Below are positions 13,731-45,997 of a stretch of DNA of 64,000 nt, one piece after another; position 1 is the stretch's first letter, and each line of letters begins with the position of its first letter. Source of the stretch: Neocallimastix sp. 'constans' (taxonomy: Eukaryota); assembly GCA_050613775.1 (NCBI GenBank), contig JBODTK010000014.1:310001-374000 (forward strand), written 5' to 3'. Below the pieces are notes generated by a model, which worked only from the letters and a program-made list of their open reading frames with translations, did not search any database and was not told the origin of the DNA. The position numbers and the translations under genes are program-made.

Positions 13731-16436
13731 ATAATTATATAATATATAATATTTCATTTTATGTATTTTATTTTTTATTTTTCATTTAAATCATGTTATT
13801 TTATTATTATTATAAATTAAATAAAGTATTCTCTATGTCTAATAAAAAAAAAAAAAAAAGAAAAAAATTATTTCATTATTTAATATTTAATATTTATTAT
13901 TTAATATTTTATTTATTATTTATTATTTATTATTCAATTATTTATTATTCAATTATTTATTATTTAATAGTTAATTATTTATTTATTTATTATTTATTAT
14001 TAAATTATTTATTATTTATTAATTAATATTTATTATTTAATATTTATTTATTTATTATTTATTATTTATTATTTATTATTTAATTATTATAATTTTTTAT
14101 TTATTAATTAATAAATACTCTTTTTATTATTATTTACTAATTATTATTTATTATTCAATTATTTATTATTCAATTATTTATTATTTAATAGTTAATTATT
14201 TATTATTTATTATTCAATTATTTATTATTTATTATTTAATAACATATTTATTTATTATTTAATAACATATTTATTTATTATTTAATAACATATTTATTTA
14301 TTTATTATCAATAATTTCTCTTTTCATTTAATTATAATTCTTCAAATAAAATCAATTTTCAATCACTATTATTTTACTATATATAAATAAATATACAGAA
14401 AAATTATCATAAAGAATAATATTAATATTTAAATTTTTTTTTTTTCCATTTTTTCCATTTTTCCATTTTACCTTTATCTTTTTTATCTTTTTTTTTTTTT
14501 TTTTTTTATCTTTTTCGATGATAAAGAGAAAAATGAATAATCATTATAATTTAATAATTTAATAAATTAATAATAATAATTATTGATATAAAATGAAATA
14601 TTCAAACCTTAATTAATATAAAATTAGTTTTTATTATTCAAACATAAATTAATGTCATAAATCAAATTTAAATCTAATGATTTTACAACAATTTCAATAT
14701 GTGGCTTGATTTCTATATATTAATTATATTTATAATTAATAATAAATTTTATATCATAAAATCAATGTTTTAATTATATTCTTATTATTTTATATTTATT
14801 TATATACAGTTATTAAATATTTCCTTAAATAATAATTATTAATAGTTTATTTTAATCACAAGAACAATTAATTAAATAGTTAATTATAACTAAATATCAT
14901 AAAAATAAAGCATTTCTCTGAATTAAAAGAAATGTCGCTGTCGTAAAGTTGTTTTATTAAGTCTAGTTAAGATTAAAAGTTATATTATGTTTAGTAATGT
15001 TTAGTTAGTTTGTAATTAAAAATATAAGAAAGTTATTAAATAGCCTTTTTAAATATATGTAGTTTTTAAATAAAATTAAATAAATAAATAATAAACTAAT
15101 AAATTTAATAAATAAATCCCAACAAAAGTGCATCGAACTTTTGAGCTGTATATCATTATCCATTCTTTATTATTAATACAATTTTATTTTTTTTTTATAT
15201 TTCATTATTATTATCCTTTATCAAAACATTATGGCACTATCAGCATGTTGCATAATCAACTCTTTTTCCATTTTTACAAATGATTATTTAAAATAATAAA
15301 ATTTATTATATTTCAGTAATTCAAACGAAATGAAACCTAAATCTGTAAAATAAATATAATTTATTATTATTATTATTATCTATTTTATATACAGAAATGA
15401 AAGAAAAAAGAATTTTTTTCTTTATATTTATTTTAGTTATAGAAGGATTTATCCTATAAATGGAAAGTATTATTAGTCACACAAAAAATAATTTATATAC
15501 AATTCATTTTTATATTAAAATACCAAGTAATTTAATTAATTAGTAGATAAATATATAAATAATTTAATAAATAAATTAATGCTTAAATTTTAAATAATGA
15601 AATAATGAAATAAATAAATATTGGTTTTATTAAATAAAAATTGGAAAATAAATTTTAAATAATAATGAAATTAATAAAAGATAATTAAAATATTTCAATA
15701 TTAATTAATTATTAAATAACAAAAAAATAATTTTCTTAATTTAATAATATTAAAAAAATAATAACAAATAGATAATAAATATTATTATAAATTAGATAAT
15801 AATTATAAATTAGATTATTATACAAAAAATATTATATATATATATAATATTAAACTTAATTCTTTATTTTTTTTTTTTTTTTTAAACTTTTTCTCCTTTC
15901 AGCACAGAATATAATTTATAATGGGAATAGAATTTGAAAAGAGATCATAGAAATAGGAATTGGGAATATTCTCTAATTATATGATTTTCATTAAAAAAAA
16001 TTTTTTTTATATTAATTAAATATAATAATATAATAATTTAATATAATAAAAAAGAAAAAAAAAATTTTTTTTTTGTTTTTGTTTTGTTTTAATAAACAAA
16101 AAAAAAAATGAACACAAAGTCATAAAAGCAGAGAAAATTAATTATTTTAAAATGGCAATAAAGTAATGAGTAATAATAAAATTATACAAATTTAATATTA
16201 CTATTCATTTTATTATTATTATTATTAAACTTTTAATTATTATTAATAAAACCTTTTATGTTTATTAATTAACTTTATATTATTATTAATAAACCTTTAA
16301 TTATTATTATCATTATTATTATCATTATTATTATAATTATTATTATAATTATTATTTTTTTATTAATTAATGATATATATAATATTTTTAATCAATCAAA
16401 ATAAATATACTATTTTTTTTTATTTTATTATTCTTT

Positions 16437-16471
<35 letters not shown>

Positions 16472-16866
16472 TTATTTTTCATTACATAATAAATATTAAA
16501 TTGTTCAATAATTAATAATTAATAATAATATCATTAATCTTATTAATCAAATTATGATTTTTTATTATCAAAATATTTCTATTTTATAACTATTTAAAAT
16601 AGTTTAAAAAGATTTCATATCAAATTATTAAAAGTTTAACAATAATATTATTTTTTTTTTATTTTTTTTTTATTTCATTATTTTATTATTTTATTTTCTT
16701 TAATCTTTAATAATATTCACTGTGTAATTATTCATTGAATATTATTTAAAAAAAAAAAATTCCATTACTTTATATAATTATGTTGTATCCCCAATTATTG
16801 TTTTATATTTAAAACATTTAAACTTTTTTTTATTTTTTATTATATATTTGTTATTTGTATTCTCTT

Positions 16867-16903
<37 letters not shown>

Positions 16904-19840
16904 TTTTTTAATTTCTTTTACTGATAGAATGTAAATTCAGATGGTATTTCATTTTATAACAGCAACCAGTTACAGCAACTATAACAAAAAATAATAAAAT
17001 ATTTATTTAATTATTAAAAGAGATTAATTAAACTTAAATACTCTTTTTATTATTCAATTATTCCATTATTCAATTTATTTATTATTGATTATTTAATTAT
17101 TTAATTATTTATTATTCAATATTTAATATTTATTATCTGTTATTCAATTATTCCATTATTGATTCAATTATCTATTTATTCCATTATTAATGTTAATTCA
17201 TCATTTTCATCAATTTATGAGGTTTAAAACTTAAAAAAAAATTTTAATTTGGATTTAATTTAATGAAAAAAAAAAAAAAAATCCAATTTATTATATTTTA
17301 GGGAGTAAAAGCTTATTTACTATTAAAATAAATTTTGTATTTATTTTGTATCTAATTTTTATTTTCCATTTCTTTAATTAAATCTTTTTTTTTTTTTTTT
17401 AATTGTTTGTACTTGTTTGTACTTGTTTATGTTGATTTTATTTATTTTAATTTATTTAGAGATGAAATGAAATCTTTTTTACTTGTTTGTACTTGTTTTT
17501 GTTGATTTTATTGATTTTATTTATTTTAACTTATTTAGAGATGAATAAAATAATAGGATAAAAAGAGCAAAATAAGGAACAATTTAATATTTAAATAATA
17601 ACAGTCATTAATAAAATTTTAGTATTCTTTCTCTCTTTTCATTAAATTATATAATTGTTTTAAATATATTTATATATTTAAATGGTACTTGTGCGGTGTT
17701 AAAAGTCGGTCAAAAATAAAAAAATTTTTTTTTGTTAATATTTTTTGATTCTTTTAAAAAAAAAAATTCATAATTTTACTATAGAATATTAAATTATTAA
17801 TTAGTTTAATTACTAATACAATTTTCAATTAATAAAAATTAGGGGAATTATTAATATGAAATTTTATAATTATGTTATATTATATATTATATATATATAC
17901 ATTATTTAATTATTTCATTATTTACTATTTATTATTTATTATAAATTAATTATTAATAAATACTCTTTTTATTATTATTTAATATTTATTCTTTATTATT
18001 TATATATATATATATAGAATTCAAATGTTTTATAAATTCAATATTTTATAGAAAGAGTAAAAAGGTTTTAAGTCAAGTCAATTTCCCATATTAATCATAG
18101 CAACACATACACTGTATATATGGTTCAATTTAAATTTAAATTGACATGTTTCTATTTAAATAAAAAAAAAAAAACATAATAAATAAATATATATATCATG
18201 TCTTAACTTTTTATTTTTACTTTTTTTTTTTTTTTTTTAATATTTAAAAGGTTTTTCGATTTTCTTTTTTTTTTTTTTTTTTTTTTTTACTTTATTTCCA
18301 TTCATTTCTAATATATTATTCTAATATATTAATAAAAGATGATCTATTATGAATATAATCTAATATATGTAGACTTAATTAATAAAAGTTTTTATATAAT
18401 TTTTATTTAATTATATTAAATTTTGTTTATTTTATGACAAATAAATACTTTTAATAATTTTATAATTCTTTTTTTTTCAATTTATATGCCTTAATAGGAA
18501 TATAGAATACTTTATTTATTTAGATATAACAAATGCATTTATTTAATTCTAATATAATGATTATATTGGAATTATTTAAATTTCATGATATTCATTGATA
18601 TATGTATTTGGTAAATGGCCCATTTGATATATCTTCCAACCAATATAAAAAATAAATTAAAAGTATTGTATTCATTAGTTGACACCTAAAATTTTAATCC
18701 TAAATTTATATTAAATAAAGTTTTTTTTCCATTTTGTTAGAAATAAAGTTTAATGAATGGATATTATTACTGTTGTAAATCAAAAAACCATAAATTAAAA
18801 TACTTTATAAAAATAACATTTTAAGTTAATTAAAAATAATTAAATGGAAAGATTTAATTCAAAGAAAAGAAACATTATTATAAAATTAAAATTAACAAAA
18901 GATTATATAAAAGGAATTCATTTTTTCTTTTTTATAATTCTTTTTTTTTTTTTTTTTTTATAAAAAATTAAAAAGAAAAAAAATTATTATATATAAATAT
19001 ACATATATGTATTTTATTGATAGAAACATATGTATATTTATATATTTAAAAAATATATTTAAAAAATTTTAAATTTTTTTTTTTTTTTTAAAGTATAAAA
19101 TTAAAAATATCAAAATTTGATATTCATAATATTTAATATACTAGAAAAATTAAAGAATATATCTCAATTATATTTATTTTTTATTATTTTTTTTTAATGT
19201 TGAAAAATATTTATTATATTATACTATTTTAAGAATTATTTTATTTATTTATTTATTTTATTATTATTATTATTTTTTTTACGTTTTTCATTGTAAAATA
19301 ATAAAATAGTACTTTATATTTTTTATTTATTTTTTTTTTGAAAAAAAAAATGAATAGTATTGATATATAAATATTTTTTATAAATCAACATAGAAAAGAA
19401 TTTAGTAATTCATATTTTTTAAAATTTCTAATACCGTATTAGTTATTATAATAACAACAAATAATAAAGAAATTTTATAAAATAGTGAATAATATTTATT
19501 TATTTATTAAAAATTCTTTATGTTAAGAAAAAATAATAATAATAATAATAATTAAAGGTTAAACAAAAATTATTGATAAATACTAATAAATATCTACTAA
19601 TTAATTGAAAATAATAATTAATGAATAATACAATATCTGTAATATAGTATATCTAATAGTATCAAGAAAGAAAAAACAAAATATGTAAAAATTTTATATT
19701 ATATTTATTACTTTTTATAATATTATATTTTTTTAATACATATTAAAAATATTATTATAATTTTAAAAAAATTATAATTATTATTAAAAAAAAAAAAAGA
19801 TAAATAATTAATATTTTTAAAATAAATAATAGATAACATT

Positions 19841-22712
19841 ATGGATTATTCAGAAAATAATCAAAATAAAAAAAAATGGAGACTTTCTCACACCATGAAA
19901 ATATACCTTTTAACTTTACTTATAACTTATGGGGTGGTACCATCTATAATTGTCCTGGTTATTAGGTATTGTCTCTGATTATTACTTTATATATATAAAA
20001 TCATTTCATCTTAATATAAAATTTTTATATAATATTTTTTTATTTTTTTATTTTTTTTTTTTTTTATGGTAATAAATATAGTAAAATTATAATAATAAAA
20101 AAATTATAAACATATATATTTTATAATATATATATATATAGAAATTTAGGTAATCTCAAATTTATGCCTCATACTTTTAGAAATAAGCAAAAACCTATCA
20201 GTTTAGAACTTGCTGGAATGATATCTTTATTACTTTTAATCATTTATGTATTTTTTTTGTATATATTTTGGAAAAAAAGAAATCATCCTTTAATAAACTA
20301 TCGTCCTATCTTACTTTGTATAAACACTGGTTTTTGGAGTGGTGTTTATAACGTTTTATTACCTGTAAGTTATTTTGGTAATAATATAAATAATAAATAT
20401 AATATAATACCTTATATAAATTTATTAATTTAATAAATATATATATATATATATATAATTCCTTTGTTTATTTATTATAATTTAAAATTAAAACTATTAA
20501 AATTTTTTGTAATTAATATTAATATATATATACCTATTTATATATATATATTTATATATAAATTTTTTTTAAAAAAAAAATTAAAAAAAAAAAAAAAAAA
20601 AAGATTGTATTAGCAATTACAGAAAAAAGAAAAAAGGAATCTATAGATAATACTAGTCTATGTTTGATTCCTTTAATACTAACTATTCTTCTTGCCCCAA
20701 TGAGTATGATGTCTAATTTATCAAGATATGTAAAGTTATTTTTATTAAATAAAAGAGATGTTAGTAGATTAAAGTTATTTAATGAAAAACAAAATTCCTC
20801 ATTTCCAATTAATAATAATGGCTTTGAACCAAATATGTATGTCAAACGTTTAAATAAATTAGTTAGTCGACAAATTACCATAAGACTCTTCATTATTCCT
20901 TATATTATTTTAATTAGTTTAGGAGGTGTTATCATTTCTTATAAATATTTCTCTGATAAATATAATGATCAATGTCAAGACGTAAATCACTACATCTATC
21001 TTGAAGATGGAAGGAAAATTAAGGATGATAATTCAAATTGTGGTTTATGTAATCAAGGCTTTATATTATATGCTCCAATTTTGTTTTTATCCTTAATCAC
21101 CAGTTTTATCATTCCATATATTTATATTAAACTCTATCATGTACTTAATTTTGTAAATAAACTTGATATCATTTTACACTTACTAGGATTATATGCAGGT
21201 ACTTTTCTTTTTATAAGTACATTATTCTCCATCAGTTATAAGAACGCTATTGTCAATGAAAATTCCGAAAGTAATATAAGATTTTATTTATTATCTCGAA
21301 TGAAAAATAATCAATTATTTTTTATCATTCCTGGATTTGTTTCATTTATTTGTGCGGTGATCATTCCTTTAATTGAAGTTTGGTATTTCGATAAAAAAAT
21401 TAAAGATAAAAAATTACTTACGAAAATGGAATTCACTAAACTTTTAATGAAAAGTAATTACATTGATTCCTTGAAATCTCTTGCTGTTAAATCTTACTGT
21501 GTGGAGGTTATTCTTTTCTGGGATGTTCATATGAAGTTAATGAAGCAAGTCTACAACGAATATATTAAGATTTATGAGGAGAAACAATCTCTTTATAATC
21601 CCGTGAATCCTTCCTATAAATCACCTATTGGTAGAGGAGATAGTGATCCAAGAATTGGTAATTGCAATAACAACCATTACAACAACATCAATAATAATTA
21701 TAATAACAGCAACGATAATTACAACTCTAACTATAACAGCAACGACGGAAACTATTATAATAATGGTAGTAATAAAAATAATAGTTTAACAAAGAAGTCA
21801 GGTAAAACCATTTCTTCTCCTCATCAATCCAATAATGATTTATTATTGAATTTAAATAAAAATATCTTTGGTAGAGATAATGAAAGAATTCTTTATGCTG
21901 GTTGTGGCTCTAATAGCATAAACAGTAATCTTTCTGATTTAATTAATAATATTGTAGATGAAAGCTCGTATCATCAAATTAATTATTATGAAAGTCAAAC
22001 AGAGAGTACCATATTAAGTTCTAGTAGTATTAGTAGAAGTGGTAGTAACCAAAACAGAGAATATAGTTTAGATGATATGGATCATAATCTTCATTATCAG
22101 AGACTACCTAGTAATACTCTATTCGATTCAAGTTTTCCTTACAACTCTAAATCTTATATGAATCAAGGTAATGATAATGGTGGTTATGATGATAATAAAT
22201 GTCTTCATAAAATAAATAGTTTACAGAGTTCCCACAGTACCTTATCTCCATTACCTTATGTAAGTTATTCTGAGGTTATGAATAGTGATAAAGCAGGTCT
22301 TCTTAATCATTCTGAATTTCATAATTTAAATAACATGAACGATTCAACTCATGATATCATAAATGCTTCTAAAAGAAATGGTAGTTTAAATAGAATGACC
22401 AGTTCGTACAATCAAATCAATAGAAAAAATCCAAATTATGATGGTCATACAGATATCTATTATGAACTTTTTAATGTAAATCCAGAAGAGGTTGAATTAC
22501 CTAAAGAATTTTGGAGTGAATTTAATAAAGTCTATCATTCTTTCATATCAGATAAAAGTTTAGCTACTGTTAATCTTGATGATAATATATCCATTAAATT
22601 AGATCAAGCGATTAAATATGAAAGATATACCATTGATATGTTTTTCCCAGCTATAGCAGAAACTGTTAATTTAATTTATCAAAATTTGTATCCAAAAATA
22701 GTTGTTAACTAA
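19841..22712 (+). CDS. 7TM-RGS protein (GPCR-like membrane domain plus regulator of G-protein signalling domain), 3 exons: 19841-19965, 20142-20364, 20604-22712 (~818 aa)
   Basis: The exons join in frame across GT..AG introns. There are 7-8 hydrophobic helices with RNHPLINYRP after TM1. RGS N-half: IDSLKSLAVKSYCVEVILFWD. RGS C-half: VYHSFISDKSLATVNLD..DMFFPAIAETVNLIYQNLYPK. Confidence 0.82.
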
Positions 22713-23187
22713 AATTTATTTAAAAAAAAAAAAATAAAAAAATAAAATAAAAAAAAAAAAAAAAAAAAAAAGGATAAAAAGTTAAATAAAATTTAAATAA
22801 AATTAAAATAGAATATAAATAGAATTAAAATAGAATTAAAATAGAATTAAAATAATCATTATGATAATAATTCTTATAATAATTATATTAATAATAATTA
22901 TGATAATAATAATAATAATAATAATTAATAAAATTAAATAAAATAAAAATAAAATATAATAAAAAATAAAATATAATAAAAAATAAAATATAATAAAAAA
23001 AAAAAAACATTAAATTTAAATATAAGTAGAAATATATAAAAAATATATGTATATATATATAATATTAATGATAATATTAAAAACAAGAAGAAGAAAAAGT
23101 GAGGAAAAATAAATATTAAAAACAAAAAATAGAGTAAAAAAGATTCATAGCTAGTCCTCCTAATACATTTTACACAAATAATAATAA

Positions 23188-26100
23188 TCATTCATTACAC
23201 AACGAATTTAAGGAAATTGAATCTCCTTGATAGCCCTTCTCCTGGTTTAAGGGAGAGTTTAGTTCCATATTTTTAATGTCATTTTCATCAAAATTAATCA
23301 AATATACACTGTTTGAATATTCAGACTTAGATAGCATTGCTTTAAAATCATTAATAGTTCCATTGAAATTCATGATAAAGGAAGCACTTTCTTCTTCACT
23401 AAATTTATTATTGTATTTTTCAAAAAGTTGAGATAATATTTTCCAAACATCGGTGATTTTTTCAGCATTATTGTGCAAATATTTGGGATTAGAAATATCA
23501 TTATAATTATCATAGTATGGTAAAATATTTTTTTTATCGATATTTTTTTTCTTTAAATAATTTCAATGAATTAATTAAATTACTCTCAATATTTTTATCC
23601 GATGATATACTCACGATGCTATCACATGAACTCCCAGAGCTATTTTCCCTTTTTGTTTTTTTGCACAATTCCTAACCTTTGGCACATTTTATAATCATTA
23701 GTTTTTTGAAACTACCTTATTAAGTAATACAAATTCATTATCTAATTGATATAAATGGGCTGCGTTAATTCCAATACCATTTATTGTACCTGGAATATTT
23801 ACTGCAAAAATATGTTCATAAATACCATTACCAACAGTAAACATTAACGTTTTATGTATAAATCTTTAGAATTGTTACTATTTTCTAATGGACGATTTAG
23901 ATAATTCCCAGTAATTTTTCTAAAATTGAAGAATAGAGGTTTCGTATTTTCATTAACAGTATTATTAAAAAATCCGATATAAGGGTGAATATATTTTTCC
24001 TTTAAAAAATGCATTTTTAATGCGTCATTATTAATATTTTCAATGTTTTCATTCTCATACTTACTTAAATCTTTCGTAATAGATAAGTATTGTTCGTTAT
24101 ATTTTAGACATGGGGTAATAGAATTATCAAAATAATTTAGTAAGTCATTAAACTTTCTAAGAACATTATAGGATTGACTAATAGCTCTATTCACACTTTG
24201 AATAATTCTATTTAAGTCATTAGTTACATTATTACTAATTGCATTTACTACATAATTTTTAAATTCATTGTAATAACTTTTATCTAATACATTATTTTTA
24301 TTTGTGAACTCTTTTAGGGTGAAACCTTTTCCTAAACAATTATCTAAAACATATTTTAAATTTTCTCTTATATTAACATCATGTTCATTATCGTATCTGA
24401 ATTTAATATAATCATACTGTGCTCTATAATTAACTGTAATTTTTTTTATATTTTACATTTCCCCCATTTTTTAATGAATTTAGTATTTCAGTGAATATTT
24501 TTCGATTGTTATATGAATTAATAGAAATATCAACTATATTGTACTGTAATATTTTATTAGCCCAACGATTTGGATCTGTAAAATCATGTAATTTCTTTCG
24601 TCCATCATTATTATTATTATTAATGGTTAAATAATTATATAAATTTGCTAATTATTGTGGTAAATTTGTATTTTTTTGATCATCTGACATTACATTAATT
24701 AAATAATCTAATACATCAACCCCCTTTATTGTTTACATCATCTTGCTTTAATATATATTTACAAACCCCATTTTTATTAATTCTATTTAAATCAGCAACA
24801 TTAGTATCAGGATCTTTGTACTGATATCCTTTCATTTTATATTCAGTAATTAATGTCCCTAAATTAATATCATCAGCTTGAGGTATATATATATTTTACC
24901 TTTAAATTTAGGATCCCTGAATACGACTCCTGTTTTTATATTGAATGCTAAAGATTTATCTTCAAAATAACCTTTATTTGAAGGATCGTTAATATGATAA
25001 TTTTTTCTTCCAAAAAATTTATGAATACTTTCCATATTCCTTCTTGTTTCATCATTTGAACAAAAAGACATAGCATATAAATCTTTAAAAATAGTATTTA
25101 AATTGTTACGGTTTGATATTTTTGCTAAAACCTTTTTAACATTTTCGTTAGATCCATTTAAGTGCAAATTCAGTACCAGGATTGGAATTTATATGTCTCT
25201 GTAAATCATTAATAAAATTATCTATTTCAGATGTAGTTAATTTAGAAGACTTAACATTACCCTTTAACATAGTTGATAATTTTGTGATATCTTCAGAATT
25301 TAATGATGGTTTTGTTGAAAACAAATTTTTAATTAAATTAAAATCAAAAATATTATTTTGACGGTTATATTCAGTTTGTTCTGGAATTTAATACCATTTC
25401 TATACTATTATTAATTTCATTATTACTAAATGAAACATTTTGGTTAGGATTACTATTTGATTTTGATATATATAAATCAATTAAATTAGAAGCTATATTA
25501 TTAGCTAATCTTAATTTTTTGTTCAATTGTTAAATCATAATTATTATCGTTTGCATAGGTTTCCAATTTATCAAACATATATTGTTTTAATAAAATATTA
25601 GTAGTATTAATTTGTTCTTTTTCATCAGAACTGAGATTTCTAATAATTGAATTTCCTCTTATTCTATTGCATTCATTTAAATAATCATTAATAATATTAT
25701 TATTACCATGATTACTTGAATCGGTAAATAAATTATTTAAAGAAGTTACATGACTATTTATATTTGTATTAAAAATAGGAAGAATTTTATAAAAATATAC
25801 TTCTTTTGAAGCAAAATCGTTATCCACTTCATATTCATATTTTCCATCACTACTTAAACTTTTTATTACAGTAATTGGATGAGCAGTTGTAATTTTATTA
25901 TAACTATCATTTATTAATAAATGATATCTTTCAATGCCATTAATAATACTTTTGAAAATACTAACAAGGAAAGTCTTAGAACTTGGATGGTTTGTAAAAT
26001 AACTTTTACATATATCGTCATTTTTACATTGTAAAAATATTCCCGATAAATCTTCTTTACTAATATAATCTATGGGTTCATTAATGTAGCTTGTTTCATC

Positions 26101-26318
26101 TAAATGTTCTCTATTACTATAATTTGTATTTCCTTTATTTTCAGGAAAATCATTTCTTGAAGCATCATTTACATATTTCATAATTTCTTTCCAATACTGA
26201 CATAAGTATTTCCCCTTCATTATTCTCAGATAATTATGTTAAAAAATTGTATATTTATCCGAAAAATGGTAATGGTGGTGATTATATTAAAGAAATTAAA
26301 ATTTTCAATTAAGCTCAT
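23188..26318 (-). pseudogene. Large (~1000 codon) frameshifted intronless ORF of unknown function, presumed viral
   Basis: Successive minus-strand ORF pieces (25501-26220, 24859-25167, 23844-24194, MFTVGNGIYEHIFAVNIPG.. at ~23700-23843, 23188-23478) are linked by coding-like sequence with frameshifts and no splice signals. It could be more than one gene. Confidence 0.55.
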
Positions 26319-26534
26319 ATTAAAGTATTTGATATACAATAATTTCGCTTTTTACGAAATATTTTATATTTTGACATATTATAAAAAAAAATTTAATAAT
26401 ATTTCTTTGTCAATTTTAATAATATTTTTTCATTTAAAATTTTTTAAGTTTATATAGTATAGAAATATAAATATTATTTAATTTTTAAAAATGAAATATT
26501 TAAATAATAAGTAATTGTAAAGTTTTATTAAACA

Positions 26535-27420
26535 ATGAATATAGAAAAAGAAAACAATACTGAATTATTTTTTAAAGAATTAAAGAGTAAAACATGTAAC
26601 CCTGAAATATTATATAATCTTTCTTTAAAGGGAATATATTTATATAAACCTTTATATTTATATAAAAGAATAAAATATCATGAGTATGTAGTAGATATAA
26701 GTTTTACCAATCAATATGAGACCATCTATTCTAGATTCTAGCAACACTACGATTCATAATAACGTAACAACATTATATCAACGTGTATTAGATCTCAACT
26801 ACCAATATCAAAATGGAAATTTAATTAAGTCTGTCTATATTGTACGTGCGTATAATTTATACAAGAAAATTTTAGGTATTCGTAGTAAAAACGATTCGGT
26901 TGAGGATGCTAATAGAAATTATATTAAACAGATGTTATCAGGAAAAAATGGTATTTTCCGAAGTATGTGTTTAGCTAAGCGTCAAAATTTTTGTCTTCGA
27001 AGTGTTATCGTGCCAAATATTGATATCCCTTTAGATGTAGTATTAATTCCTAAAGTCTTTACTGATTCCTTAATTCCTTATGGGTATAAAACCAATGACT
27101 TTGTTATCATCAATAGACAACCTACACTTCAAACTACTTCAATCTTAGCCGTTCATTCTCGTCCAAGTAACTGTCGAACCATTCAGATCAATCCACTTAT
27201 TGCTAATGTCTTTCAAGCTGATTTTGACGGTGATGAAATGAACATTTTTTTGGTTACCGGGTGAAGAAGCTAAAGAAGAGTTGGCCACAAAATTAAATAT
27301 TGCAAATAATATCCGGTCATTTAAAAATGCTTCCATTATGATCAAATTTATACAAAATACTTGAACCGGAATTTATAATATGGCACGTAATAAAGAAATT
27401 ATTGATATTGATATTTAAAA
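26535..27420 (+). pseudogene. DNA-directed RNA polymerase largest subunit (RPB1/beta-prime-like), compact, frameshifted and 3'-truncated
   Basis: Motifs in canonical order: LPINMRPS, LSGKNGIFRSMCLAKRQNFCLRSVIVP, VIINRQPTLQ, INPLIANVFQADFDGDEMNIF, then after a frameshift PGEEAKEE..IQNT*TGIYNM (equivalent to QDTLTG). Frameshifts at ~26700 and ~27250. Confidence 0.9.
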
Positions 27421-27439
27421 CTTTGTCTTTATTGTTGAA

Positions 27440-28495
27440 ATATCGAGTATAATAATTACCAAATAATTTATTATAATTTATCTTTATTGGAATGTTAAAG
27501 TGGAGATCGCTTCCGATCATGACCTCATTGTGAAAATTGATATAAAGAAAATATAAATATTTGACTATTATTTTGATCGTTGAATACATATACCATTGTA
27601 CCTCTTGAAATTGGATAGTTTCATTAAAAGTTTTCCATTTATTATATAAATTCATAACGAAAGATGTTCTTATATATATCAAGAGTATAAATTACCTTTT
27701 CTGCTAAAGACATTACATTAATACTTTCATTCGTATATATATTGAAAAATAGATTGTATTTGAGAAGCATCATATCAAATAATTGAAAATTTATACTGAT
27801 AGGGTAGTTAAACGTTACTTTTAAGGGATCACATTCAATAAAAACATCATCAGGAGAAATATTAAAGGAAGATAAGATTTTCAAAACGATATCATGCGAC
27901 TCTTTTACGGTAAAAGTTATTTTACTTTCAGTTATCAATATATTATCATGGCATAATTTTATAAGGATATAATTTTCCTTACTTTCAATACTTTTTAAAA
28001 TTGAATTATCATCATTCATTAGTCCTTGTTCATAAAGATATGTTTTATTGAAATAATCATTATAATAGTGTAAGTAAGTTAACCCTCCAATATTACAAAT
28101 AATATATTGTGCAGTTTCTGATAAATCTAATTTTATCAACTCCTTATAAACTATTTTAAAGCGTTGAATTGGAATATCAATAGTGACGTAAAACAAAGTT
28201 TTATAGTTGTATCATTCAAGTAATATTTATATTTTATACGTTTATTGTTAACAATACTTTCTAATCTATCAATTAACATAAACATTATTTTTTGTTGATA
28301 ATCAATATTACTAATATCTATATCTTTATTATCTATACATTTAATGATATACCTATCTTTTGATAACTGATTACAATCAATGATATTTATACCCTCGAAA
28401 AAATAATAAATTTTACCATTTATATGTATTTCCAATTGTAGAGGAACTGAATGATAATTTACTAAAATACTACGGATAAGATTTATAACATTCAT
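27440..28495 (-). pseudogene. Frameshifted ORF, possible N-terminal part of an NCLDV early transcription factor large subunit (VETF-L/A7-like)
   Basis: Three overlapping minus ORFs (28151-28495, 27642-28196, 27317-27682) join through frameshifts. Segments FNYP..FDMMLLKYNLFFNIYTNES, IIVKYLYFLY and KLFGNYYTR resemble, from memory, VETF-L blocks ending in LF..Y[ST]R.CQ. Not verified by search. Confidence 0.4.
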
Positions 28496-28995
28496 AATTT
28501 TTTATACTCAATATAAAAATATAATTTTTACCTATAAAAAAGATAATAATATTTCTTGTTTTGTTATTTTAAATCGTACTTAGAGTAAATTTTTTATCAT
28601 TTTAAAAATCAACTATGAATTATTATATTTAAATAGATATATAATTATTTTTTTTTTTTTGTTGAATTTTATTATTTTTGATTTTTTTTTATTTCATTAT
28701 TAAATTTGACAAGGCTATTTTTATTTAAGTACTACAAATATTTTAGAAAAATTTTTATAATATTTTTTTTTCTAAAATGAATTTTAAAAAATTTAAAAAT
28801 TTGTTAAAATCTAAATCAAATTTATAACTAAATTTTGGAGAAAAAAAATATTAAGAAATATTCTTTTTAAAAACTTTAAATAGATATAACAAATAAATAA
28901 TAGAAAGTAAATTAATAAATTAAATAAATAAATAAATAAAAATAAATAAATAAAAATAAATAAATTAATTTAAATAGATTAAAGATTAATATAAT

Positions 28996-29247
28996 ATGGA
29001 TAATATTTCGATGAAAGCATTGGATAAATTTTTTAAAGAATCATCCTTATTTAGTGAAGATAGGTTAAGAGAGAAAAATAAATTACCAGTATTAGATGAT
29101 GAAAAAAAGGAAATAAAAAAAAATTCTATATGTTGTAAAAGATGTAATAATAATAAATATATTGAGTTGAGACGTTTATAAATTCGTAGATGTGATGAAG
29201 AGGCCACTATAGTATATTATTGTTCAAACTGTAAAAGAGTTATTTAA
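28996..29247 (+). pseudogene. TFIIS/Rpb9-type C-terminal Zn-ribbon transcription factor (83 codons, one premature stop)
   Basis: Reading through TAA at 29179-29181 gives CKRC-NNNKYIELRRL-(Q>*)IRRCDEEATIVYY-CSNC: a CxxC..QxRxxDE..CxxC ribbon. A CAA>TAA change explains the stop. Confidence 0.8.
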
Positions 29248-29831
29248 AACTTTTATTTAATTTATAATTTTTTAATAATATTTAGATTTAAATAATTTAT
29301 TAATTTTAAATATTTAATAAATATTATTTAAATATAATTCATTAGATATATGTCCAATTAAAAATATGGAATTTTATATTCAATTCAACTTTTATAAAAT
29401 ATTAAAATTATAATTTTGGTTTAAAAAAAAAAAAAATATGAATAATTTTAATGTTCACTTAAATTATTTTTTTTGAAATTATTATACAATATTATAATAT
29501 TACTAATTAATTATAAATATTCGTTTATATGAAATGAAATGAATTTAATATAAGAAAATATGTATATTATAATATAAATTTGTAAATATTTTAATTTTTT
29601 TTTAAAAAATAATAAAATATAATAATAAAATTAATAGTTTATAGTGATTAGGGGTTCATACAAAAAAGAAAAAAATTTGACATAAATAATATATTTTAAC
29701 CATTTCTTAATTTGTTTAAAATGAAAAATTAAATTAAAAATTTAGTAGTAAATTACTCATTAACGTATATAAATTTAATTGAAATTTTTTAAATACAATA
29801 ATTAATGTATTAAAAAGTATTAAAATTTAAA

Positions 29832-30684
29832 ATGCAAAAAAAAGAATTTTAAAAGTTCGGAACAACTTGTCAAGTCGATAAACTCTTCTAATAAATCTAG
29901 TACTTCAAGAATAGATTATTATAATCGTATCTTATCATCATCATGCAGTACAGATATAATATTTCAAAGAATGATATCTACTATAAATTTTAAGGAAGTT
30001 ATACCTTTACCTAAAAATAATAGTATGTTTCGATTTGTTATCAAATGTTTCAATAATACCAATAATGTAATTTTAGGACCTTTAAAAATTAGTTCTGGTA
30101 TTACGTTAACGGATTTACCCTCTTTATCTATTCCAATGTCTCATTACCATCTTAATAAAAACAATTTTGTACAAGATAATTTTATTCATCGAATTTCCGA
30201 AAACGAAACTGAACCAATGAAAAAATTTATTGAACGACTTCGATTTATCGATTCTCGTATGCAAATGCTAATTTCGGATTATATTAGACATATCGATGAA
30301 TCTTCTCCTATTTATAACATGTTAAAAAAGAATAATGTAACATTTAATCAAAATTGGATCTTTACTGGTATTATAAATAAAGGAAATAATAATACCGAAT
30401 ATATTAATATTCGTTACTTTAAAGATTCATTTAAAGGCAAAAAAAAGATTGGTACTAATGTTTATTGTGAAGATGATTATTTGGATGAGATGGCAGATCT
30501 TCTTTCTAGAGACACGTTTTGTTATATTAATGGAAATATTTATCCATTGATAAAAGTAAATTATATTATTATTAATGAACGTATTGTTAATAATATACCA
30601 ATGGTCAATTTTACATGTAAAGCTTACTTTGTAGATATAAACTTTATACCAAATTCAATTCATTGTAGTACTAAAAGATTATAA
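29832..30684 (+). CDS. Intronless viral-like protein, possibly an OB-fold single-stranded DNA-binding protein; 237-aa intact frame from 29971, probable original ATG at 29832 separated by a frameshift
   Basis: Beta-rich C-terminal half (IYPLIKVNYIII..VNFTCKAYFVDINFIP) resembles the pattern of T7 gp2.5-like SSBs of NCLDVs, and it lies in the viral cluster. Function is inference. Confidence 0.35.
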
Positions 30685-31379
30685 ATATATATGTATATAT
30701 ATATATATATTTATATGTTTATAGTAAAAATTTGACAATTTTAATGTTATAATTTCATTGAAATATACTTTAGTAATAACATAATTAAAATTATTAATAA
30801 TAATAATTTTATATTTTTTTTCCTAGTCTAAAAGAAAAAATCAATGTTAAATTATGGTACTTTTTTATAATCCTGTAGGAATGGATTCATTCCACTTCAT
30901 GTTTTTTTTATTTTTCAATTTTTTAATATACTTTTGATATTAATTATCCTTTACACCTTTTTTTTTATAAATATTTTTATTTCTTCACCAATAATTATTA
31001 TATGATAATGTATTTTTAGATTACCTATGTTGGGACGTACTCGATCTTTCCTTATTTTTATAATAAGGTGGTAATTTTGCCTACAAGGGGAATTAACTCT
31101 AAATGTAAAAAAAAAATGATTCCTTTGCACTAGGAAATAGTACATTGGTATTGAAATAATTTAAAAAAAAGAATTTATATTTATATAACTTGTTTTGTAT
31201 AAGGAATTTTTTTGAAAAATTAGAAAACTTGTTTTTTTTTTTTTTTTTTTTAAAGATAATTTTGGATAATAATATATATATAATTTTAAAAAAAAAATAA
31301 TTCTAACTTCTATATAATTATATATATATGTATTTTTATTATTATATGCTAATTATTTAATACATTTTCATAAATTTTT

Positions 31380-31990
31380 ACTTTTAAAGCATAAAGATCT
31401 TAAACTCTCTACTGAAGTTAGCTGGAAATTTTTGTAGAAATTCATTTAAAAAAAAAAAAAACAGAAATAATTTAAACAATTTTCCAAGTCAACGTCTAAT
31501 ATGTTACTTCTTTTTGGAATCAAAATCAACCAATTGGTAACATTTATTTTACCTCAAAATAGATGGCCTGATGCTCGTTCAAAAACTTTCTCTGAACTTA
31601 ATCAATGGTTGAAAAGTCATACTAATAATAACTCTCCTACGGTTCTTGTTGGAGACTTCAATATGCCCTTTGAAAAAAAAAAACTTAAGAAATACATTTT
31701 TCAATACATTTTTTATGACTGGACGATTACAAAGCTAATCTATCTGATGATAATATTACCTTTATGCCAAAGGTTCAAAGTCTTTCATGTTTCATGCATT
31801 GATCACATAATTTATAATAAAAAAAAAACTATAATAGGCTTAATAAAAATTATTTATTTACAATTCATTTAAATTATTCTCAGAACTAATAAAATTCTTT
31901 TCCATATTATTTAAAAAAATAAAAAATAAAAAAAAAAATTAAAGGATTTATTAAATATACTCTTCTACTTTTAGCTCTGACATAAAAAAA
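31380..31990 (+). mobile_element. LINE apurinic-endonuclease (EEP) domain remnant
   Basis: IGNIY/LPQ (frameshifted), TVLVGDFNMP, SCIDHII and SDH (~31975) motifs in order. Confidence 0.72.
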
Positions 31991-32131
31991 AAAAAAAAAA
32001 AAAAAAAAGAAAAAAAAAACTATGATGAATATTCTAATCCTTTAAATTTTTAATTAATAAACAAGAGGCCTATATTATTAATGTGTTGGATTATTTCATT
32101 ATATGAAATAAATAAAAAAAAAGGATTTTTT

Positions 32132-32168
<37 letters not shown>

Positions 32169-33005
32169 ATTTTTACGTTTTAATTCTTACTATGACTTTT
32201 ATAATATCAAGAAAAAGAAAATTAAATTTAGAAATGTTCAACGACTATAATTGATGTTACTTATATTATCTTATTTTAATTAATTATCAAGATTTGTAAT
32301 ATTTATAAATATATATTTATATATACATATATATTCAATTATTATATTCAATATTTTTATTTTAAATGCTTGAAACCAATTAACTTTGTTCCTTCTTTCT
32401 ATGAAAATTTGCACATTGATAATATTTTTAATAGATGGGATCATTCAAACTTTTATAATGGTTTTATTGAAAAAAAAAAAAAAAAAAAAAAAAAAAAGAT
32501 ATTTAAAAAAAGGCATCAAAAATAACTTTTTCACTAATAACTAAAGATAATTGAAAATGTTTTCTATTATAATAAAGGCGATAGTAAAAGACTTATCAAT
32601 AGTAATATATTATATAGCCTAATTTATCTCTAACTTTGATAAAACTACGATGAATCATTTGGGTTAAATTTTCATAATTTTATAATAAATATGATATAGC
32701 TATTTTGATTGTTAATAAAATATTAACTTTAATTAATATTGTGTTATAATTATTATGATAATAATAAATTTTAATTAATAATAAATTATAAATAATAATA
32801 AATTTATTATTTAATAATAAGGACGTAAGATAATATAACTATATATGTTTTACTTTTATGATAAAAAAAAAAGCAAAACATATAACTAATTATATGTTAC
32901 AAATGAATTATTAAATTTTAGTATTTATTGTATTACTAATTCTTTTAACCATTATTAGTATATATTTATATTTTTTTAAAATTTTCACTGTAACTTTATA
33001 TACCT

Positions 33006-33046
<41 letters not shown>

Positions 33047-33969
33047 GATAAAGAAATTTTTAAATGAGCTTTCTAAAAAAAAAATTTTTTTTTATGTGAT
33101 ATTTTTAAAGTTACACAAAAAATAAACAAAAAAAATAAATAATTTAAATCTCCTTTTTTTCCAAGAATAAAATTATAAAAATTTTTCTTATTAAAATTTT
33201 TTTATTAAATCTTAAAAATAAAAAAAAAAAAAAAGAGAAAATTTTGGATTATTTATATAAAAAAAAAAAAAAAAGAATATAAAGTATTCTTCATATATAT
33301 TATAAATATAATGTTTTCTATATTGAATTAATTATTTATATAAATGTAAATATATTATATTTACATTTATCATATATACAATATATTATTTTTATATATT
33401 CTTTAAATTTTTATAATTTTATATTTTTTAAATTTTTTATATAAAAAAATAAATAAATATAAAAAATAAATAAATATAAAAATAAAAAAATTAAATATTA
33501 AAATAAATAAATATAAAAATAAAATAAAATAATTTGTAATAGTAATAATTAATAACATAATAATTAAATAATAATATGAAATTATAATAAATATTTAATA
33601 AATTATAAACTTTTTTTTTTTTTTTTTACTTGTAAAATTTAAAAACAAAAAAAAAAAATTTTTTTTTTCTTTTTTTATTTATGTTAATAAAATTATTTAA
33701 TTCATATTTTAATTGATATCGTTAAATAGATTTATTAATAAATTAATTATTAATAGTTCAATGATAGTATAAAGATTATTGTCATTTTAATACTTCATTG
33801 AAGATTCAAAAGTATAATTAGAGTAAACTATTTTTTAGGAGAGAAAATTAAAGTTTATCTATTTAATGAAAATTGAATTTAAAATTTTATATTTTAAAAG
33901 AAATAAACATTTAATATTATATATTTATAATTTATTATACCAAGTATATTGTAAGTTAAATTAAGAAAT

Positions 33970-40759: not shown

Positions 40760-40798
<39 letters not shown>

Positions 40799-40973
40799 AA
40801 AACCTTTTTTTTTTTTTTTTTTTATTTTTTTTAATATATATATATATTCAATTTTATTTTAATATTAATTTTATTTTATAATTTATACTTATAAATTGCT
40901 TTTTATTATATATTACAATATGTATAAAATATAATATAGAAATTTTTGTATTATTTCTTTATTATTATATTTA

Positions 40974-41070
<97 letters not shown>

Positions 41071-41136
41071 TTTTTTTTTATTTTTTTATAAACTATTTTT
41101 TTAAATTTAAAATTTGAAAATTACTTACTTATATCA

Positions 41137-42767: not shown

Positions 42768-44852
42768 TTATAATATTGATTTTTTCCATTTCATTTTTCC
42801 TGAATCATTATTGCATTTGTCAATACGTGGAGTCATGGAATAGTAAACACATAATTTATTATTATTATTATCGGTAAGATGCTTGCCATTAATATCGTAG
42901 ACATCAATAGAGTCTGATGAATAGCCTCCATACATAAATTTATGTTTGGCATTTTCACAATTGACGATGCTAAGGAAGTTATAACCGTTTGTACTGTGAT
43001 GATTACCTAAATCTAAACAATGACTAGATGGATTTCCAGGATTACCATAAGTACCATCGGATAAATATAAGAGAGATGGTTTAGTTTCAGAAGTAACATG
43101 CCATGTACGATATTTATAACTATCATTACTATTTTTATCATGAATATCGAAATATTCATAATTCTTTAATTCCTTAACACCTAAATAGTAATTTAATGTA
43201 GGATCTAATGTCCCTTTGAATTTAATAGTAACATAATTAGAAATAGTTGGTTCTGATTCATCGTTGTTATTAGAAGTTTCATTAATAGAGAATTTTCCAA
43301 GGTAGTTAGCACCTAAGGATTCATTCCAAATATTTTTGTCATCATTAGCAAATCTGATAGGGAAACCATTTAATCCTTTACTTTTAGTTCCAGTAGCAAT
43401 TCTTAAGTATACTTTGTAATTTCCATTTTTCATGCCATTTGGAAGAATTGCTTTTACTTTGACTGTAGTTTTTTCTTTAGAATTCCAATTATTTGGATTA
43501 CCATTTTCGATAGATTGAATTTCAGATAGGTCATAACGGTTATTGTTATTATCAATTACTAAAAGAGAGAGTGATTTTGGTTTTACAAGATTACCATAAC
43601 CAACATTTTCAATATCAACTTCCATTCTAAATATTCCATTACTTTTAGCTGACTTTGTAAGACGAACACCACGAACAACATATCTATAACCAAGATGGTT
43701 TTCAACATAATTGTAACCAGATATTCCCTTATATCTTTTATCAACACCATTATACTTTTTATTTTTTAAGTTACTAATAGTCACGTTATAATGTCCATTG
43801 TTCAAATAACTTGTATGAGTCAAAAATGCTTCTTTGTCCATATAATCAGCTGTAGGACTTACATTACCCATATCATCGTCTTCATCGATACCTCCAAATT
43901 CACCTCCAAATAATGTATGTTTTGCTTGATTTTTTAACCATTTTATTTCTTGTTCTCTATTTTTGTAAGTACCAAGATCACTTTTTGATGCAAGATATCC
44001 ATCATTGTATATACCTACTCTGTAAGCCTTTTCATTTGGTTTTGTAATTTGACTTGAAATCTTGGATAAATCTATATTAGCCCAATCACTGTATATTTTA
44101 GGAGTTCTTACACTTATAGTAAGTGATTCTGGTAAAAATTCTAACCAATTATTAATAACTTTATTTAAATATTTAGGTTTTTCGCTATCCGAGTAGACAC
44201 TACTTCCATGCATTTCACCCCATTTACCAAATAATCCACATTCAACTGAAGCTATGATATCATCATATTTTTTAAGGACTCGGCTTACCTGTTTTTGATG
44301 ATTTCTTACATTGTCAGAAGAAGGATCCTTACTGACATCACCATTGAAACCAGGATCATATGCAAATCTAATTACGATAGTTTTATGATTTCTTTTTATT
44401 TGTTCTAAATATTTATCTAAGAAGGTGAGAGCTTCCTCATCTATAGAATGTTTTTGATAATCAGAAATATCTACTAAAAGTCGAATTAAATTGGTCTTTG
44501 GAATAGAATGATTCTTACTCTTTCTATTTCTTCTTAAATAAATTACTATTTCTGTATAAAAACCTCTATAAGGATTTTGAACCTCGGAAAGAGATTCTAC
44601 ATAACTAATGTCATTTATAGATTGAAAATTACCATTAGATAATTCATCTCTTTTCATGACAGGATTAAAAGAAGTATTCAAAGAATTATAAGTTTGATTT
44701 TGAGCAAGGACATTCTCTGTAGATAAATCAACCTTATCATCCATTTCAAACGAGTAGTCTAAATTTGTATCAAGAGTTGGCTTTCCATAAACCTTAATAT
44801 CTTTTAATAATAATAAAGATACTACAGTTGTAATAGAAGTAAAAAATTTCAT
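42768..44852 (-). CDS. Secreted DUF4874/DUF4832 glycoside-hydrolase-like protein with C-terminal ricin-B-like module, copy 1
   Basis: Signal peptide; NPYRGFY, IRFAYD, GLFGKWGEMH, RVGIYNDGYLAS..DLGTY, FGGE, HTSYLN, HLGYRYV and ENVGYGN motifs; Cys-paired C-terminus (CLDLG, IVNC, LCV, KC..MKW). Intronless. Confidence 0.8.
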   Translation of the reverse strand: MKFFTSITTVVSLLLLKDIKVYGKPTLDTNLDYSFEMDDKVDLSTENVLAQNQTYNSLNTSFNPVMKRDELSNGNFQSINDISYVESLSEVQNPYRGFYTEIVIYLRRNRKSKNHSIPKTNLIRLLVDISDYQKHSIDEEALTFLDKYLEQIKRNHKTIVIRFAYDPGFNGDVSKDPSSDNVRNHQKQVSRVLKKYDDIIASVECGLFGKWGEMHGSSVYSDSEKPKYLNKVINNWLEFLPESLTISVRTPKIYSDWANIDLSKISSQITKPNEKAYRVGIYNDGYLASKSDLGTYKNREQEIKWLKNQAKHTLFGGEFGGIDEDDDMGNVSPTADYMDKEAFLTHTSYLNNGHYNVTISNLKNKKYNGVDKRYKGISGYNYVENHLGYRYVVRGVRLTKSAKSNGIFRMEVDIENVGYGNLVKPKSLSLLVIDNNNNRYDLSEIQSIENGNPNNWNSKEKTTVKVKAILPNGMKNGNYKVYLRIATGTKSKGLNGFPIRFANDDKNIWNESLGANYLGKFSINETSNNNDESEPTISNYVTIKFKGTLDPTLNYYLGVKELKNYEYFDIHDKNSNDSYKYRTWHVTSETKPSLLYLSDGTYGNPGNPSSHCLDLGNHHSTNGYNFLSIVNCENAKHKFMYGGYSSDSIDVYDINGKHLTDNNNNKLCVYYSMTPRIDKCNNDSGKMKWKKSIL

Positions 44853-45997
44853 TTTTTTTTATTTTTTTTAAATTGTATTATTTTTTAGTTTTGTAATATA
44901 AAAAATATAATTTTATATTTTAAATTTTTATTATTATTTCTTTTTTTATTTTTAAAATTTTGAAAAAAGAAAAGATTAAATAATCTTTTTTATATATAAT
45001 TATTTTATAAAATAATTATATTATTATTTTATTTATTTTAATTTTTTTGAAGAATAAATTAAGAAAAAATTACTTCTATTTATATTTTAATGAAAAAAAA
45101 CATCTAAATGTACAGCTATAATAATATAAATAATAAAAGTAAATGTTTCCATTATTGAATAATTTTAATTAACGAAATAAATTTTATTACGTATAATATT
45201 ACCTTATAATGTAAAATTAAAAATAATAAAAATATATTATATATTATACTATTATTTAATATTATATTATTACTTTATATTATATAATTGTTTAATAATA
45301 ATAACATTAATATATATATATACATTATTACTTTTTTTTTTTTTTTTACATAAATTATTTTCATTTTATTTTATTTTTATTTCTTCCATTTAAATTGAAA
45401 AATATATAAATTAAATTTTTTTTTTTATTTTTTAATTTTTAAATTTATATATATCAAATTTTTTTTATGTTTTTGTTTCAAATTTATAAAAAATATAGAT
45501 TTAATTTTTTATTGGGTGAAAACATTATTGGCAAAATAAAATAAAATTTAGGATTAAATAATTTTTTTTTTAATAATCCTTATAATGCCTATTAAAAATT
45601 TAATATTCGAATAATCGAAATGCTATATTATTATGAGATTTTTAAATAATTAAAATCTAAAATAAAAAAAATAAAATAAATTATAATTATTAATATATAT
45701 AAGTAATAAAATTTTAAGCTACTTTAAATTATCAATTTAATATAGTAAATTATTAATAAAAATAAAGATAAAATTATATCAATAATTATTAATTTTTTTT
45801 TATTCATTATTAGTCATATAATTATTTACTATAATTTTATTTAATATAATATTATCAATTAAATTATTTTATTATTGATTGTTATGTTATAATTACTTTT
45901 GATGAATTATTTCATTTAAAAATTATTTATTTTATTTTAATTTATTTTATTTTATTTTATTTAAATATATACATAAATTAAAAAATATACGTATTAT

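Follow-up and report, generated by a model that had tools for sequence, protein, structure and literature searches.

The window analysed here, a stretch of 64,000 nucleotides of the gut fungus Neocallimastix sp. 'constans' (contig JBODTK010000014.1, positions 310,001 to 374,000), has a GC content of 11-27% in 2-kb bins and its closest relatives in Neocallimastigomycota genomes. At 26700..27415 on the plus strand, it harbors a 716-bp piece of a gene for the N-terminal half of the largest RNA polymerase subunit (RPB1), which comprises the end of the clamp core, switch 2, a dock-less double-psi barrel and a QADFDGD loop, and which scored 73.9 bits against PF00623. The piece is internal and corresponds to codons ~180-417 of a 719-aa RPB1 N-half: the tblastn match of the protein P0001 (719 aa) is confined to residues 180-417, and the DNA alignment with the intact locus L081 (its positions 567-1288) revealed 98% identity (98.2% over 26700-27420) with sharp edges at 26700 and 27415. 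Contigs from public runs diverge from the window at 26700-26703 and at 27415, continuing as intact RPB1 sequence. Five silent changes and one replacement distinguish 26701-27243 from L081; one additional base within the T run 27245-27251 disrupts the reading frame, and an in-frame stop stands at 27362-27364. A relative from Piromyces sp. E2 (P0017, on a 68,043-bp contig) shares 72% identity with the piece. Taken alone, the copy in the window is a broken fragment of an ordinary kind, and the region is with high confidence assigned as a broken internal fragment of the RP1n gene of a fundsalphavirus.

On its left, positions 26535..26704 (plus strand) hold the 5' part of an unrelated gene, which family comparison places in the family P0278/P0277 (247 or 100 aa). 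It overlaps the RPB1 piece by ~5 bases, likely a microhomology join, and a contig from an RNA library spans 26519-26704 and then departs from the window. A second, distant member of the P0278 family (30% identity) was observed at 40779-41114 on the plus strand. An earlier note on this DNA had read one miniature gene from 26535, encoding a polymerase devoid of both clamp and dock. The letters do run so across one frame change, an ATG at 26535 being followed by 55 codons free of Zn motifs up to the frame change at 26700, and a clamp-less, dock-less design does occur in the fused relatives P0031 and P0033; the anatomy is nevertheless wrong, because the 55 upstream codons belong to the other family and the intact gene carries a clamp, so that this reading, refuted by the loci L081 and L082, can hardly be entertained any longer.

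On its right, the RPB1 piece adjoins the 5' half (aa 1-361 of 736) of a P0088-family gene at 27416..28495 on the minus strand, which contains two frameshifts. Further along, a TFIIS-like zinc-ribbon gene (28996..29247, plus strand; 83 aa when intact) is interrupted by an internal stop at 29179-29181; the intact P0265 scored 28.1 bits against PF01096, and the window copy matches at 98.8% over 83 codons. The next gene (29832..30684, plus strand), frameshifted near its start, is nucleocytovirus DUF2738/DUF5871-like, its protein being assigned to Nucleocytoviricota clusters with an Atlas score of 0.95 and 211 shared features. Its intact copies P0266-P0273 measure 283 aa, and the product is presumably a single-stranded DNA-binding protein (SSB). 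In one pairwise test, P0088 was aligned with a DUF5757 protein (E 0.028, 298 collinear columns), with which it shares the columns LF..Y.R..P..A..Y..G..C; five other tests for a DUF5757/A7-like protein gave no match, and local profiles from two sequences, like pairwise BLAST, detected neither P0088 nor the SSB-like gene. If DUF5757 is, as we assume, a mark of the viral early transcription factor, P0088 may tentatively be regarded as the large subunit of that factor. A candidate assignment of the P0088 fragment as phage tail GPD (Atlas 0.92) was rejected, there being only 120-126 shared features. Neither a double jelly-roll capsid gene nor an A32 gene was found in the window, and the repeats listed within 22000-33500 are all of low complexity. 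Close to where the viral piece ends on the right, 31471-31872 (plus strand) displayed weak endonuclease/exonuclease/phosphatase matches (E 0.006), a fragment that is perhaps derived from a non-LTR retroelement.

In the intact genes, both Zn motifs of the clamp (CxxC..CxGH and CPxC..CC) are present in all 14 aligned full-length proteins and in 49 of 49 rows of at least 690 aa, many of which are near-copies, and the ligands C41, C44, C50, H53, C80, C83, C96 and C97 show at least 90% conservation across 146 aligned rows, archaeal A' included. The LPxxxRPS motif is preceded by 165-225 residues in the intact homologues and starts at residue 166-226, mostly 177-183, versus ~247 in Schizosaccharomyces pombe Rpb1; judged from these alignments, the clamp of the gut-fungal family is shortened. 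The dock tells a different story from the clamp: the retention of both regions in intact homologues had been set beforehand as the test of the earlier note, and the clamp was found to be kept, which removes the claimed clamp loss, while the dock was found to be absent, so that the claimed dock loss stands and the dock deletion, not the clamp deletion, is shared by the intact homologues for which a search had been proposed.

The dock spacer was counted from the R of RSVIVP to the N of NRQP in 264 of 299 rows, the other 35 being unmeasurable. It amounts to 38 in all 26 measured rows of the gut-fungal family, to 91-98 in 66 of 66 measured archaeal rows and to 92-155 in 123 of 124 viral rows, the exception being L001 with 48; a value of 53 for the archaeal P0056 probably reflects a mis-anchored pattern. 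The dock insert of ~57 residues in S. pombe Rpb1 has no counterpart in the family, and the loop of only ~10 residues noticed earlier between VLIPKVFTDSL and DFVIINRQP in the window is accurately described. Comparison of L081 with L082 gave a dN/dS of 0.103/0.354, and on these sequences the intact dock-less genes are under purifying selection. Since the loss is fixed in intact genes with such a ratio, it is not decay, in agreement with the earlier proposal of an in-frame loss.

The catalytic loop QADFDGDEMN in place of NADFDGD, likewise read correctly before, is typical of the family: QADFDGD occurs in 66 of 71 rows (the remainder being one QGDFDGD, one QAGFDGD, one QASFERD and two unreadable), versus NADFDGD in 111 of 111 further relatives. 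The N of NADFDGD is presumably N458, and the R of NRQP presumably Arg425. In the part of the literature consulted, Arg425 is the main sugar selector and the substitution N458S costs less than 5-fold (PMC7862312). Because the main ribose-selecting arginine, in NRQP, is kept, the change from N to Q is predicted to be tolerated. The marks by which an RNA polymerase largest subunit is recognised, namely a DFDGD loop in a double-psi barrel and the NRQP motif, are both present, and P0001 ends ~50 aa after the bridge helix, as archaeal A' does. A structure predicted from a deep alignment (pLDDT 86) shows helix 297-306 leading directly into strand 313-318; an earlier model from 15 close sequences (pLDDT 49) was set aside. 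The fold matches archaeal Rpo1N (8cro_A, the top Foldseek match among solved structures) and Pol II, and the best match among the 50 viral models listed is a 905-aa subunit of Pithovirus LCPAC104; baculovirus LEF-9 is absent among these 50.

A profile search, of which the best 120 matches were listed, disclosed 111 new relatives, mostly of 526-750 aa and on contigs of up to 97 kb. Their dock spacers, measurable in 104 and unmeasurable in 7, are 36-52 in 14, 73-82 in 78 and 92-141 in 12. The gut-fungal family and the short forms constitute one clade (support 97, starred, and 99/97, starred, in separate trees), which a mixture-model tree recovered with 96, starred, together with the fused clamp-less P0031 and P0033. 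The stem of the gut-fungal family is long (1.3-1.6), for which reason an attraction artefact is possible, and the link of the clade to the group containing iridoviruses (L056 of which we take to be IIV-3, with an ORF of 1378 versus 1377 aa) is unstarred (82/87, 86). P0030 and P0149, each with a spacer of 40, nest among forms with a partial dock, which makes repeated loss of the dock likely. The trees omit near-duplicates and some long rows as well as P0062, which has no motif; P0083, P0038, P0082, P0087 and L065 were dropped from the later trees, P0031 and P0033 are included in two, and all were built without poxvirus, yeast virus-like element (VLE) or certain eukaryotic rows.

Several of these relatives merit separate mention. 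P0031 and P0033, on contigs of 9.5-30 kb, are fused RPB2-RPB1 proteins of ~1,000 aa that lack the Zn clamp of RPB1 and have a spacer of 30; both trees that include them place them in this clade. In the P0030 cluster, the RPB1 N-half measures 540 aa and lacks the dock; its contigs of 24,739, 24,754 and 24,857 bp are nearly equal in size, which suggests a complete element of ~24.8 kb. Two relatives' contigs, covered over 32 of 40 kb and 40 of 52 kb, harbor PolB, D5, a separate RPB1 C-half, DUF5757, FEN1 and MutS; one of them has RPB2, TFIIS and UDG besides, the other a capping enzyme. One IMG/VR contig of a dock-short nucleocytovirus (L237, L236 and L001) also carries genes for a truncated globin, a MYND finger protein, a dUTPase and a MutS with HNH. 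Close members of the gut-fungal family gave 0 matches in an exact motif scan of IMG/VR and none in two protein scans of it that covered 18 and 19 of 64 parts; in the 5 of 64 parts of the prokaryotic genomes that were scanned, the matches were archaeal and included no close family member, and PHROGs yielded nothing useful.

On the basis of PolB, Gong, Zhang and Han in 2020 defined the fundsalphaviruses in 14 fungi, of which five are gut fungi, and placed them near Pithovirus (PMC7017919, consulted in part, as throughout). Their reported genes include RP1n, RP1c, RPB2, RPB5, D5, a D6/D11 helicase and a SAM methyltransferase; the published RNA polymerase trees separate them from cells, and they were treated as fossils near retrotransposons. 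Some fungal MCP and A32 hits are reported to group with NCLDVs (PMC7017919), which counts against the reading favoured below. The present family resembles them in the same five gut-fungal hosts, the split RP1n/RP1c, the linked D6/D11 helicase and SAM methyltransferase, and the affinity to Pithovirus. The split RPB1 is seen here as separate C-halves on relatives' contigs, the gut-fungal RP1c being known from the published map only, and the helicase/methyltransferase linkage is found as well. Moreover, the Piromyces sp. E2 contig of P0017 has the same 68,043 bp as KZ151082.1, for which the published gene map shows POL and RP1n (PMC7017919), so that, judged by length, at least one contig is shared with that map.

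A viral origin, as the earlier note proposed, is supported by these data. Its suggestion of a new viral RNA polymerase clade holds insofar as a distinct clade of reduced polymerases exists, but fundsalphaviruses with a split RP1n/RP1c were already published from these fungi in 2020. In the gut-fungal rows available from PMC7017919, no TFIIS-like, SSB-like or P0088 genes are listed and no tandem order is mentioned, and the word 'dock' occurs 0 times in the portion of its supplement consulted. Dock loss, the Q loop and high depth are undescribed in that portion and in the open literature consulted, although subscription papers or the rest of the supplement may hold them; the same sources yielded no description of a tandem or circular order or of a wide clade of short split RPB1s. 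Further background was provided by parts of PMC11071308, 10.64898/2026.06.19.733378, 10.1101/2024.03.23.586382 and PMC13768754. The virus group is published, while the polymerase architecture and the signs of a high-copy, capsid-less persistence appear to be undescribed.

Among known polymerases, the top viral fold matches are found in the group of Pithovirus LCPAC104 and IIV-3, which we take to be the order Pimascovirales, where split N-halves occur and which falls in the same broad, unstarred branch; this sister group differs in its normal or longer dock spacers (79-152), its NADFDGD loop and its far larger genomes. Archaeal Rpo1N (A') shares the split point and is the top fold match among solved structures, but it keeps the dock and is 160-190 residues longer. 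The yeast VLE pGKL2 (ORF6/ORF7) is also fungal, with a reduced RNA polymerase split at the archaeal position, a helicase, a capping enzyme and poxvirus-early-like promoters, whereas its ORF6 fuses beta and beta-prime without most of the clamp and its replication is protein-primed (PMC6211774). In the gut-fungal family, by contrast, the clamp is retained and the subunits are separate, and the available part of the published map shows PolB of the conventional kind together with D5 (PMC7017919); the fused, clamp-less beta-beta-prime architecture is found in P0031 and P0033 instead. Mycodnaviridae are another large-DNA-virus lineage in early-diverging fungi, but, as far as the consulted portion of their description extends, they possess capsid and TFIIB genes, are kin to Imitervirales/Algavirales and occupy other hosts; 'RNA polymerase' and 'Neocallimastigo' appear 0 times in its main text (PMC13533422).

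The gene set of the element is pieced together from accession order and from the published map of conserved domains near POL, same-contig placement being deduced from adjacent accession numbers and equal contig sizes. In named Neocallimastix assemblies, the intact order is P0088-like, TFIIS-like, SSB-like, one more gene and RPB1, as exemplified by KAL6588566, 568 and 570 on a 37,527-bp contig and by KAL6588328-332; the linkage of P0088 to RPB1 likewise follows from accession order. The set recurs after 16-18 gene numbers, as in RPB1 KAL6590372 and KAL6590388 with SSB KAL6590386, or SSB KAL6592795, RPB1 KAL6592797 and SSB KAL6592813. The gene model P0315 joins RPB1 to the helicase downstream, and the cap methyltransferase P0104 (37% to the L001 capping enzyme) is linked only via its odd place in the RPB1 cluster. 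On this accession order and the published map, no capsid or TFIIB gene was seen in the gut-fungal sets. Yeast killer toxins have a chitin-binding subunit; a ChtBD1 chitin-binding gene also adjoins RP1n in several gut-fungal copies, according to the portion of the supplement consulted (PMC7017919). The same source gives permuted orders of one gene set on the N. californiae contigs MCOG01000572.1 and MCOG01000618.1. Such arrangements suggest a tandem or circular gene order, and the window order of RPB1 piece, P0088 piece, TFIIS-like and SSB-like gene fits one deletion on a head-to-tail or circular template.

Read depth was taken from assembled contigs in 4 of the 24 listed runs. The single-contig depth of RPB1 versus the flanking host gene was 4871 versus 37 in DNA run X3 and 3384 versus 28 in X9, that is, 120-130-fold; in X1 the binned depth sums reach ~15,000-20,000 versus 5-7, and none of these contig-based figures, the sums across overlapping contigs included, gives a copy number. 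At 27245, the depth without the intact allele was 44 (X3) and 79 (X9), near single-copy, and ~6,400 of 9,235 in X1. RNA run X15 covers the viral genes with the intact allele at about host-gene depth, a coverage that could come from DNA carry-over of a high-copy element. Present-day extrachromosomal replication of the element is conceivable on these grounds, though we lean slightly against it. Elsewhere in the window, 23191-26220 (minus strand) is a broken copy of the 863-aa orphan gene P0282, whose relatives P0319, P0321 and P0322 have signal-peptide-like starts; its single-contig depth is ~950-1020 in X3 and X9 (26-37 times the flank) and ~9-14 in X1 (2 times the flank), and this sequence marks a second multicopy element, varying in depth independently of the viral one. 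Four ORFs of up to ~700 aa, at 42771-44858 and 51710-53797 (minus strand) and at 56333-58441 and 62806-64000 (plus strand), have the N-terminal 80 residues in common, with a signal-peptide-like start.

We consider it probable that the intact gene encodes a dock-less, clamp-bearing RP1n of a fundsalphavirus, likely starting transcription without a TFIIB zinc ribbon, of which the window retains a broken fragment. The element would be a unit of ~16-24 gene models kept as head-to-tail or circular copies and comprising PolB, D5, RPB2, RP1n, RP1c, the D6/D11 helicase, a cap methyltransferase and UDG according to the available part of the published map (PMC7017919), to which the TFIIS-like, SSB-like and P0088 genes would be added from the present analysis. 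It would transcribe itself in the manner of poxvirus early genes, with the early transcription factor and the helicase recruiting the polymerase, and the loss of late (capsid) genes would have rendered TFIIB and the dock dispensable. As far as the source was available, the dock binds the B-ribbon of TFIIB and is the recruitment surface in archaeal, eukaryotic and solved viral polymerases, and the TFIIB of ASFV is thought to serve late genes (PMC10881513), on which grounds both could be dispensed with in a unit without late genes. With the dock absent, the zinc ribbon of TFIIB is likely unneeded, and initiation independent of TFIIB is, by a small margin of judgement, the expectation that we favour. 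Early-type systems need not be dock-free, since in vaccinia the B-ribbon of Rap94 sits on the dock (PMC10881513, in part), and a partial dock (spacer 73-82) persists in 78 of the 104 clade members measured, which speaks against the dock-free model. The window copy itself would have arisen by one deletion joining mid-RPB1 to mid-P0088 across the rest of the tandem or circular template, and by a second join to the unrelated repeat on its left.

The most serious alternative holds that the intact-looking copies are inert chromosomal repeats, spread recently by host duplication or with the aid of retrotransposons, and that the enzyme was used only in the ancestral virus. Copies do lie on contigs of 425-997 kb, decayed ones exist (the window; P0024 with QASFERD; P0100 and P0302), and the view of fossils near retrotransposons is that of the part of PMC7017919 consulted; yet dozens of stop-free, full-length 719-aa variants (a cluster of 75), a TFIIS-like protein of 82 aa that recurs unchanged on 30 contigs, and a depth ratio that varies greatly by run (~120-130 in X3 and X9, sums of ~15,000-20,000 versus 5-7 in X1) render it unlikely, albeit not negligible. 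Still less probable is that the virus forms virions like an ordinary nucleocytovirus, with its capsid and late genes situated beyond the mapped unit or diverged past detection, and with a divergent initiation factor bound to a substitute surface. Among the IMG/VR relatives, contigs of up to 97 kb harbor MutS, dUTPase, UDG, FEN1 and further genes of large viruses, but no capsid, A32 or TFIIB gene was matched in 51 ORFs from the two contigs above (32 of 40 kb and 40 of 52 kb) or is present in the fundsalphavirus rows consulted of the PMC7017919 map, and a capsid-gene survey of 2,543 fungal genomes, in its available part, lists no Neocallimastigomycota (PMC13533422). Finally, a decayed paralogue of the host Pol I, II or III largest subunit is scarcely credible: cellular subunits are the best sequence matches among solved structures, but introns and a CTD are absent, the gene is split, its neighbors are of nucleocytovirus type, and it groups with viral contigs in trees without certain eukaryotic RPB1, being separated from cells in the published trees as well (PMC7017919, in part).

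Starting from the dock-less, clamp-bearing RP1n, a bolder proposal may be advanced as a speculation that is more likely wrong than right. The gut-fungal fundsalphaviruses would be living, capsid-less, self-replicating elements of ~30 kb, present in hundreds of copies per genome and served by a minimal, TFIIB-independent RNA polymerase, and the reduction series within one clade, from a dock spacer of 73-82 through its loss (36-52) to the fused, clamp-less P0031 and P0033, would trace how the polymerase of yeast killer plasmids descended from that of Pithovirus-like viruses.

A selected dock-less enzyme in culturable fungi offers a direct test of dock-independent initiation by a multisubunit polymerase, which is informative because the dock is the surface recruiting TFIIB-like factors in archaeal, eukaryotic and solved viral polymerases. 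If the element replicates at high copy number with its own transcription system, it would be a candidate for orthogonal gene expression in anaerobic fungi, and it may also clarify the origin of the yeast linear-plasmid polymerases.
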